Source of the DNA: Promethearchaeota archaeon
GTDB taxonomy: Archaea > Asgardarchaeota > Lokiarchaeia > Sigyniarchaeales > SOKP01
Length of the DNA stretch: 32,000 bases
Assembly: GCA_030606485.1 (NCBI GenBank)
Contig: JAUWGH010000005.1
Coordinates: forward strand, 120,001 to 152,000
Direction of reading: 5' to 3'
Of this stretch, positions 15,561 through 18,031 are shown one piece after another; positions within the stretch are counted from its first letter, which is position 1; every line of letters starts with the position of its first letter. A program made the translations under genes and the position numbers. The notes beneath the pieces are model-generated. The model was given only the letters and a program-made list of their open reading frames with translations. It made no database searches and had not been told where the DNA came from.

Positions 15561-16931
15561 TTATTTATTCTTTAATTTTTGAGTTAATTCTTTGATTCCA
15601 TTTGATAATTCTATTCTAAAAAGATTTAATTGTTCTAATTTTTTGTATTCTTCCGGCAATTTTTCCATGGTTTTAAAATAAAACTGTTGAATCTCATCTA
15701 ATGATAGTAAATCAGAGATTAATTCCCCTTTTTTCATTATTGGGATCATAAATGGCTCAGATTTATTAGGTGGAGTTTCATTTTCTAGCATTAGTATATC
15801 TTTGGTAAATTTTCCATTTTCATCATATACTCTATAGACTTGTTTTTTTCCGGGATATGTGATTTTCCCTTCGCTAATTTTAATCTTAGGAATTCCATTA
15901 TGTTGTATCAATTTGTAAACGCTATTCACAACAGGATCATCCCGACTTGTAACCATTTCAGTACCTACACCAAAAGCATCAGCGGGCGCCCCTTTTTCAA
16001 TTAAATCTTTTATTTTATACTCATTTAAATCGCTACTTAATGTAATAATTGCATTCTTGAGACCATTTTCATCCAATATTTTTCTTACAATTTTCGAATT
16101 TTCCACAAGATCACCCGAATCAATCCTCACACCTCTTATATCCTTAGCTGTCTTACATGCATTTAGTGTACCTTTTTTAACATCATATGTATCTATGAGT
16201 AGAATTGAGTTCTTTCCGTAAATTTTATAAAAGGCTTTAAAACTCTCTAGCTCTGTAGGGAATCTTTGAACCCATGAATGAGCCATTGTTCCAGATGCTT
16301 TAATACCCAACTCCAAATCCGCCACACAGTTGCTTGTACCATTAAAACCTGCAATATAACTTGCTCGAGCAGCGTAAACCCCTGCTAATGGGCTATGAGA
16401 ACGTCTCGTCCCAAAATCTACTATTATTCGATTTCCAGCTATATTTCGTATTCTAGATGCTTTAGATGCTACTACAGTTTGATAAGTAATCACATTCAGT
16501 ATGTATGTTTCAGCTAACTGTGCTTGAAATGTAGGCCCTTCAATTCTCATGATTGGCTCATTTGGGAAAAAAAATTGTCCTTCTGGGATTGACCACACAT
16601 CGAGATCAAATTTAAAATTAGGTAAATACTCGTCGAAAAATTTAGGATTTATATTTTTAAAATCTTCTCTACTTCGGAAGTATTCAATCGTTCTTTCATT
16701 AAATCGTGCATTTTGTAAATAATGTATGATTTGTTCAAGCCCAGCAAAAATTAGATAATTTCTGTTTCGAGGAAGTTTTCTTACAAATACTTCAAAAGTT
16801 GATATGTCATTTTGATCATCTATAGAATTCTCTAAATTATATTGGAAATATCCGGCACTCATTGTCAATTCGTAAAAATCAGTCGCTAAAATAATATTAC
16901 TATCAGTTAAAAAACCACTTTTAGGGATAAT
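15561..16931 (-). CDS. pncB: Nicotinate phosphoribosyltransferase; true start uncertain, upstream of the ORF-track start at 16868
   Basis: 'FEVFVRKLP..RNY', 'AQLAET..LN', 'DFGTRR', 'GTMAHSW' (phospho-His), 'LIDTYD', 'GVRIDSGD', 'SSDLNE', 'FGVGT', 'VYKL', 'K.T.PG.KQVYR'. The conserved N-terminal 'LATDFYELTM' is in frame upstream of 16868. Position 16931 (ATT) is a provisional start. Confidence 0.9.
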   Translation of the reverse strand: MIPKSGFLTDSNIILATDFYELTMSAGYFQYNLENSIDDQNDISTFEVFVRKLPRNRNYLIFAGLEQIIHYLQNARFNERTIEYFRSREDFKNINPKFFDEYLPNFKFDLDVWSIPEGQFFFPNEPIMRIEGPTFQAQLAETYILNVITYQTVVASKASRIRNIAGNRIIVDFGTRRSHSPLAGVYAARASYIAGFNGTSNCVADLELGIKASGTMAHSWVQRFPTELESFKAFYKIYGKNSILLIDTYDVKKGTLNACKTAKDIRGVRIDSGDLVENSKIVRKILDENGLKNAIITLSSDLNEYKIKDLIEKGAPADAFGVGTEMVTSRDDPVVNSVYKLIQHNGIPKIKISEGKITYPGKKQVYRVYDENGKFTKDILMLENETPPNKSEPFMIPIMKKGELISDLLSLDEIQQFYFKTMEKLPEEYKKLEQLNLFRIELSNGIKELTQKLKNK

Positions 16932-16996
16932 ACCTAATCAAATCCTTTTTTCAATTTTCTTAAAATATCTAGAAGCTTTTAAATAAAAAAAGTTAT

Positions 16997-18031
16997 TTAT
17001 TTATAGATCTTGCCGGCTCCAGCATATGTGAGTTTTTCCCCTAATGCTAATCTCACTAAGTTGCTAATGATGTATGGTTCCAATCCTTGGGCTTTTGCTC
17101 GACTTCTAAGGGGAAGAACGCATAATGGGCATAAGAAAACCATTGCTTCAGCTCCAGCTTCCTTCGCATCCATAATATTGCTCATCCGCCATTTATTTGA
17201 TTCTTCTTTACCTAAATTTAACATTACTGCTATAACTCCTCCACAGCACTGGGCATCAATTCGATCGTATTTTCTATCTACTCTTTCAACCCCTATAAGT
17301 TCAAATAGTTCATCAAGTATTTTGTCATTTTCTTCAAAGGCATACCTTGAAGCGCAGGGTTGCTGGTAGGCAACTTTCATGTTTAATTTTTTTATCTGGT
17401 CATTATGCTCCTTAACATAATCTCGTAGATATTCTAATATATGAATCGGTTTAAATGGCAAATCTATCCCGAATTCTTTGACCTTATTGGTTAACATCGC
17501 ATAGCAGTCATCATGATAACATATTATTTCCTCAGCACCAATCTTGGCGAGATTATCTACAAAGATTTGGGCATTTTCACTAACCATACTTGGTTTTCCT
17601 GCATGCACCCAACCAAAATAACAAAAATAATCACCTCCTTTAAGAAGTGTCATTCCATCGAAGAGTTGCCCTTCAATAACTCCGGGAAGTATATCACCTA
17701 CTGAACAGAGATTCATAATTGGTTTTTCAGGATCACCTTTAATAATTTTGGATGGCAATTTTGAAGCCATTTTCATCATACCTATCCATTCATTAGTAAC
17801 TTTAAATGTTCCAGTTTCTTCTTGCCTATCATTAATTAAATCAAAAGGATTGGCACCTTCAGGACAAAACATATTACAGGCAGCACATGTAATACACTCC
17901 GCAGTTATTGGAGTGGGCTCACCATCTATCAATTTTTTAAACTCTTCCTTAGCTTTCTCCTCGGAATATGCCAAATAGGGGCATTCCATCAAACATACTC
18001 CACAAACGGTACATCTATCTTTTAAAAACAT
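16997..18031 (-). CDS. (Fe-S)-binding protein with a 4Fe-4S dicluster and CCG (HdrD/GlpC-like) domains
   Basis: N-terminal 'CTVCGVCLMECP' and 'CITCAACNMFCP'. C-terminal CCG motif C-x35-CC-x37-CPLC. The first CCG domain is degenerate ('CYFG', 'CYHDDC'). Confidence 0.88.
   Translation of the reverse strand: MFLKDRCTVCGVCLMECPYLAYSEEKAKEEFKKLIDGEPTPITAECITCAACNMFCPEGANPFDLINDRQEETGTFKVTNEWIGMMKMASKLPSKIIKGDPEKPIMNLCSVGDILPGVIEGQLFDGMTLLKGGDYFCYFGWVHAGKPSMVSENAQIFVDNLAKIGAEEIICYHDDCYAMLTNKVKEFGIDLPFKPIHILEYLRDYVKEHNDQIKKLNMKVAYQQPCASRYAFEENDKILDELFELIGVERVDRKYDRIDAQCCGGVIAVMLNLGKEESNKWRMSNIMDAKEAGAEAMVFLCPLCVLPLRSRAKAQGLEPYIISNLVRLALGEKLTYAGAGKIYK

Follow-up and report, generated by a model that had tools for sequence, protein, structure and literature searches.

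A candidate ATT start codon for the nicotinate phosphoribosyltransferase gene pncB of a Lokiarchaeial Asgard archaeon

Introduction

Where does translation of a gene begin when no canonical start codon precedes the residues that its product needs? This question is raised by pncB, the gene of a nicotinate phosphoribosyltransferase, in a member of the Lokiarchaeia (order Sigyniarchaeales). The gene lies in a window of 32,000 nucleotides (assembly GCA_030606485.1, contig JAUWGH010000005.1, positions 120,001 to 152,000), in which all features described here are on the minus strand and are given in window coordinates. The host assembly comprises 3.75 Mb in 13 contigs with 29% G+C, and pncB is single-copy in it; the source names attached to related proteins point to a Loki-type archaeon of cold-seep sediment. 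After an in-frame TGA at 16940-16938, the pncB frame reads L G I I P K S G F L T D S N I I L A T D F Y E L T M. Between this TGA and the annotated TTG start (16866..16868), ATG, GTG and TTG are absent from the frame, and the next canonical codon is the internal ATG 16862, which is the start used by other gene callers (called proteins P0122 and P0123). An earlier note on this DNA had reported that pncB has no canonical start between the TGA and 16868, and our reading of the frame agrees with it in every detail. Reading through the TGA, as an alternative genetic code might permit, offers no way out, as the pncB frame upstream of it also contains no start. The note had proposed initiation at ATT 16931 behind a Shine–Dalgarno (SD)-like element, a +1 frameshift at a CCC-TAA string, or a single-base assembly error or recent mutation, and had seen in the first two a translational control point on NAD salvage. 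Here, we weigh these proposals against the congeners and more distant orthologues of the gene, its pattern of substitution and the start codons of the whole genome.

Results

The protein read from ATT 16931 to the stop codon (15561..16931, 456 aa; P0151) is matched by the Pfam domains NAPRTase_N, NAPRTase and NAPRTase_C, of which NAPRTase_N begins 7 codons upstream of TTG 16868. Against NCBIfam NF006696 (cut-off 503), it scores 512.6 bits when read from ATT 16931 and 494.9 bits when read from TTG 16868; the ATT-start protein also reaches 478 bits with NF009131 (cut-off 330) and 466 bits with TIGR01513 (cut-off 297). It lies above the curated equivalog cut-off for nicotinate phosphoribosyltransferase (type II PRTase) and has all three domains of that enzyme. 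The frame is intact across 456 codons, and orthologues comprise 456-463 aa. The closest solved structure is that of the E. faecalis NaPRTase 2F7F (E = 3.7e-81). In the alignment to 2F7F, the histidine of the GT(x)AHS stretch, which we take to be the phospho-histidine, is kept, and the tyrosine of the TDFYELTM motif (codons 16860..16883, including the internal ATG 16862) aligns with Y17, the equivalent of human Y21. Compared with the E. faecalis enzyme and human NAPRT (4YUB), to which it is homologous, the archaeal PncB has a short and variable N-terminal tail ahead of the motif. In human NAPRT, Y21 stacks on nicotinate and the alanine mutant loses activity (PMC4442680). The nicotinate-stacking tyrosine is present in the product only if translation starts upstream of 16868, whereas a start at 16868 or 16862 yields a product without it and without 21 profile positions. 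The earlier view that TDFYELTM is a substrate-binding motif which would be lost from the TTG 16868 start is therefore borne out by the alignment with Y17 of 2F7F, by the NAPRTase_N boundary and by the human mutant (PMC4442680).

The 5' end of the gene was compared among the window genome (G000) and three genomes of the same genus (G001-G003; protein 92-93% identical). In G001-G003, an in-frame TTG stands at the position of window TTG 16941, followed by ATT-AGT-ATT and then by the conserved P-K-S-G-F. The window differs from these relatives at three places: it has GG at 16933..16934 where they have a single G, which amounts to a one-base insertion; a T at 16927 (coding strand) where they have A, which turns an AAC codon of the pncB frame into ATC and, in the frame of the mini-ORF described below, a TAA into TAT; and TTG at 16868 where they have TTA, so that the annotated start codon goes back to a synonymous change specific to this species. 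As a consequence of the extra G, TTG 16941 is out of frame and opens a mini-ORF of six codons and a stop (16921..16941; TAA at 16923-16921) that ends in CCC-TAA (16926-16921), where a +1 slip enters the pncB frame.

The extra G is a real allele. It is present, with zero differences and no gaps, in Logan contigs of four runs from four studies (X1, X5, X6 and X8, at depths of 14, 70, 54 and 4.5, respectively), two of which are independent of the assembly, not being candidate sources of it. An assembly error is thereby excluded as its origin. Hence the check for a spurious indel that the earlier note had envisaged at read level, run here on the contigs of these runs, came out against an artefact, and of its proposal of an assembly error or recent mutation only the one-base insertion relative to the congeners holds. 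A minor contig of run X6 (depth 8.75) carries the congener-type allele, without the extra G and with the relatives' base at 16927. None of the sequencing runs listed as containing this stretch is an RNA run. When metagenome contigs were searched for close variants of the pncB 5' region, none above 64% identity was found among the matches listed.

In an alignment of N-termini read from stop to stop, the start codon of 10 of the 11 family-level orthologues outside the genus (ATG in nine, GTG in one) shares its column with ATT 16931 (16929..16931), the third codon past the in-frame TGA. The fourth-codon ATT of G001-G003 sits in that same column, and the proline two residues on is shared by some of the orthologues. 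ATT at the position of 16931 is kept in all four same-genus DNA sequences. What the comparison reveals is an in-frame AUH codon at the position of the orthologues' canonical start, in a gene where no canonical codon preserves the essential N-terminus. Of the two elements for which an alignment of related 5' regions had been recommended, the ATT is conserved in the genus, whereas the CCC-TAA is not. The start is not in this column everywhere: in L012, from one related genus, the ATG aligns with the TTG position and not with the ATT, and TTG may be a genuine start in some relatives. Genus variants with MINPK and MNNPK N-termini must use a canonical codon beside or instead of the ATT, and the position of the start codon is evidently fluid in this clade. 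Four other lineages of the genus (P0011, P0012, P0124 and P0133) are called from the same internal ATG (MSAGYF...), are otherwise full length and are scattered over the protein tree. Such calls are to be expected if the TTG is dispensable, and these lineages may carry an out-of-frame or lost TTG of their own.

Upstream of the ATT lies an SD-like element of 10 nt (16937..16946), which matches the anti-SD complement at 8 of 10 positions when the genome's own 16S tail, ending GGATCACCTCCT, is taken as the reference. The element ends 5 nt before the ATT, and its part in the GGTGA register ends 6 nt before it. The latter spacer, which is 5 nt in the congeners, equals the mode for ATT/ATA/ATC starts in the genome. 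The predicted duplex, with two central mismatches, has an energy of -8.6 kcal/mol, a value that about 5% of random in-frame positions reach as well, and the element is more degenerate than those in the typical ATT/ATA/ATC-start cases. Anti-SD duplex scoring over all starts gave hardly any distinction between real starts and background, and the genome-wide analysis was therefore based on statistics of exact 5-mers and their spacers.

The whole of G000 was scanned for sequence that looks coding but lies ahead of the first canonical start. In many intact genes, essential N-termini (P-loops, a Rossmann motif, the AFOR N-domain) are encoded before any ATG, GTG or TTG. About 36 long intact ORFs have in common an in-frame ATT, ATA or ATC that is preceded by a strong SD 5-mer at a distance of 4-9 nt (mode 6); the first canonical start follows 12 or more codons later, and in most cases the codon stands 0-7 codons past the upstream stop. 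Among codons 1-8 of long leads, 19 of 362 ATT/ATA/ATC codons have a strong SD at a spacer of 5-8 nt, compared with 23 of 2070 other codons (Fisher p = 2e-6). The spacer distribution of GGTGA has a sharp peak at 6 nt, with neighbouring codons giving echoes at 3, 9 and 12 nt. Candidate starts include ATA in an SDR gene (L111:151), ATT in a Ras-like GTPase gene (L112:151), ATA in an AFOR gene (L114:151), ATT in a UBC-like gene (L115:151), ATC in a MIPS-like gene (L116:151) and a further ATC at L121:807 (minus strand). In proteins read from ATT or ATA, Pfam profile position 1-2 falls within residues 1-7 in SDR, Ras-like GTPase, AFOR and SMC, and the first canonical start of these four would remove the nucleotide-binding or N-terminal domain. 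In the MIPS-like gene, the ATC of G000, G002 and G003 aligns with an ATG in G004 and G007. Public gene calls would truncate all of the approximately 36 candidate genes. Judged by these regularities of the sequence, AUU, AUA and AUC very probably serve as routine start codons in this archaeon. A few CTG start candidates were also found in G000.

For the SMC gene (L113/L125, G000:C8:382004-383416), G000 and G002 have no canonical start before the Walker A motif, in a lead of 100 codons. The ATT at L113:151, which we had considered as its start, is probably too far downstream: G001 (L128) has an ATG 12 codons upstream of it, and the residues in between are conserved in G000. In G000, translation of this gene probably begins instead at an ATT that follows GGAAGGA and lies two codons past the upstream stop.

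On the window's own branch, pncB has acquired 7 nonsynonymous and 17 synonymous private codon changes (omega about 0.11), compared with about 19 and about 5, respectively, under neutrality. This shows that the gene has been under purifying selection on that branch. Pairwise dN/dS among the four genus sequences is 0.11-0.18. No other lesion was seen in pncB, and neither of the marks that would identify a pseudogene, relaxed selection or further lesions, was found.

Discussion

Based on these comparisons, we consider it probable that translation of pncB starts at ATT 16931 and that the gene is intact, neither broken nor frameshifted. We infer actual initiation by ribosomes at AUU 16931 from the orthologue start column, the register of the SD-like element and the genome-wide AUH candidates, which together support the first of the three options of the earlier note. 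We propose the following hypothetical course of events, in which (i) the genus ancestor would have changed the family's ATG at the start position to ATT; (ii) the TTG three codons upstream of this ATT would be a fortuitous in-frame codon within the SD-like element; (iii) the extra G in this species would have lengthened the spacer from 5 to 6 nt and put the TTG out of frame, leaving the gene unharmed; (iv) the SD-like element (16946-16937) would pair with the 16S tail in the GGTGA-N6-start register and so position the small subunit; (v) the initiator tRNA would read AUU 16931 as a near-cognate start; and (vi) the product would be a 456-aa enzyme beginning M-I-P-K-S-G-F, with TDFYELTM kept. According to this scenario, the extra G most likely lies in the untranslated spacer of pncB.

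The same insertion could instead be taken as a lesion. Were pncB a young pseudogene or silenced gene, the extra G would recently have knocked out a TTG-initiated reading frame, leaving at most a product without the tyrosine from TTG 16868 or ATG 16862, and the loss would be tolerated through de novo NAD synthesis. The insertion is indeed specific to this species, within-species diversity is so low across four studies that a lesion could be recent, and 8 of 41 genomes searched, two of them 99% complete, have no pncB match. An argument that pncB is essential, and hence functional, was rejected, as nadA, nadC and nadE of the de novo pathway and an isochorismatase-family gene are present; with the three nad genes in place and some related genomes without a pncB match, loss of the gene would be tolerable. 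Nevertheless, we regard the pseudogene as unlikely. Without a second lesion, and with 7 against 17 changes on the branch, a neutral phase is limited to approximately its last 8% (Poisson estimate), and only about 0.7% of random frameshifts would hit the 10-nt interval that separates the TTG from the ATT. A truncated product would lack the nicotinate-stacking tyrosine and the 21 profile positions, and the ATT occupies the place of the orthologues' start in a genome where such starts appear to be in wide use.

Two further readings retain UUG 16941 as a working start. If initiation were coupled, the UUG mini-ORF would be translated, and ribosomes terminating at UAA 16923-16921 would reinitiate backwards at AUU 16931, or the mini-ORF would interfere, so that pncB output would depend on it. 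The 8-nt overlap of the mini-ORF with the ATT would suit such an arrangement, as would an upstream context identical to that of relatives with the in-frame TTG. We nevertheless hold it to be improbable: there is no sign that the UUG is used, only one species has the arrangement, which argues against its selection as a regulator, and independent SD-led AUU initiation explains the data without the mini-ORF. The lowest probability of all, a very small one, we assign to a corrective +1 frameshift, in which translation would start at the ancestral UUG 16941 and proceed for five more codons, whereupon the peptidyl-tRNA-Pro, with UAA in the A site, would slip from CCC to CCU, giving a product that begins M-I-R-Y-Y-P-K-S-G-F. 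The geometry for re-pairing of the P-site tRNA at the shift-prone CCC-TAA (16926-16921) is exact. Without the A>T change at 16927, the mini-ORF would stop at a TAA two codons short of the CCC; the loss of this stop is suggestive, with a chance probability of about 9% by a rough estimate. In E. coli, ribosomes are prone to a +1 shift where a stop comes directly after CCC, generally at no more than 2%, and the phages SPP1 and Q54 use CCC_UAA (PMC3082878); compensatory frameshifting over indels is a recognised class (PMC5009743). However, the shift site and the two-frame layout are not conserved, G001-G003 and the 11 family-level orthologues with readable 5' ends being single-frame, and L002 has no CCC at the site. 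The CCC-TAA string arises simply because a codon ending in C precedes Pro-Lys. UUG 16941 itself lacks a usably spaced SD (only 1 nt separates it from the end of AGGA), no stimulator is evident, and a yield of at most a few per cent is to be expected. In the literature consulted on archaeal frameshifting, no cellular +1 case was found. Above all, nothing requires a shift, since the ATT provides an ordinary alternative. Of the second option of the earlier note, therefore, the shift-prone context is real in bacteria and phages (PMC3082878), whereas the site lacks conservation, the layout occurs in this species alone and no shift is needed. Compared with known CCC-then-stop systems, the locus has the same CCC-stop string and a +1 frame that continues into the main ORF, but it differs from them in its unconserved site and two-ORF layout, an ORF1 of only 6 codons, the lack of a stimulator and its single-frame relatives. 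The complete version of this reading, in which UUG still initiates, full-length PncB arises only via the CCC_UAA slip after a six-codon leader, this state is fixed across cold-seep populations and the A>T change at 16927 was selected, has the same very small probability; if correct, it would be, as far as we know, the first corrective +1 shift of a cellular gene to be described from an Asgard archaeon.

Initiation at ATT 16931 would have precedents in bacteria. SD-led initiation at AUU is used by infC and pcnB of E. coli, and ATT, ATC and ATA are listed as alternative starts in NCBI table 11. As in the bacterial cases, gene finders call a codon further downstream, and a candidate near-cognate AUH start stands here at normal spacing behind an element that is, in pncB, a degenerate match to the anti-SD complement. 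In contrast to bacteria, the Asgard host has initiation factors that resemble those of eukaryotes (aIF1, aIF1A and aIF2), and the habit seems to touch dozens of genes rather than one or two. An autoregulatory logic like that of infC is not evident for pncB, and the suggestion that its start constitutes a special control point on NAD salvage finds no support, ATT/ATA/ATC starts having the appearance of a genome-wide habit. Literature searches found no published report of ATT, ATA or ATC starts in Asgard archaea and no experimental demonstration of AUU initiation in any of them. A 2026 review describes SD sequences as rare in Lokiarchaea (PMC12993045).

For annotation, the reading proposed here would give a PncB of 456 aa from ATT 16931, whereas public records hold proteins of 435 or 433 aa that lack a substrate-binding residue. 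The locus can serve as a natural test case, in that a real one-base insertion takes the only nearby canonical codon out of frame in a gene that is still under selection. More broadly, SD-led initiation at AUU, AUA and AUC seems to be widespread in Lokiarchaeia. If this is confirmed, standard gene callers systematically truncate Asgard proteins, and a relaxed choice of start codons in archaea closely related to eukaryotes would bear on the evolution of start-codon stringency with aIF1/eIF1.

Some further features of the gene and its surroundings may be recorded. The pncB proteins of the genus (P0002-P0013, P0122-P0150) look mosaic, with N-terminal types (MISINPK, MINPK, MNNPK, MININPK and MDLISINPK) and C-terminal segments shared across different lineages; a large part of the window's C-terminal segment, for instance, recurs in P0130 and P0131. 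The pattern points to recombination within the genus together with a fast turnover of the first few codons. Outside the Asgard archaea, the nearest metagenome relatives of pncB are 38-43% identical (L032-L110, among the matches listed), and several of them come from contigs labelled gut, bioreactor or fermentation metagenome. Directly past the stop of the upstream Fe-S/CCG-domain gene (16997-18031) lies a T-rich, TATA-like stretch (16975-16992, minus strand) that is kept in 4 of 4 genus genomes and could be the terminator of that gene, the promoter of pncB, or both.
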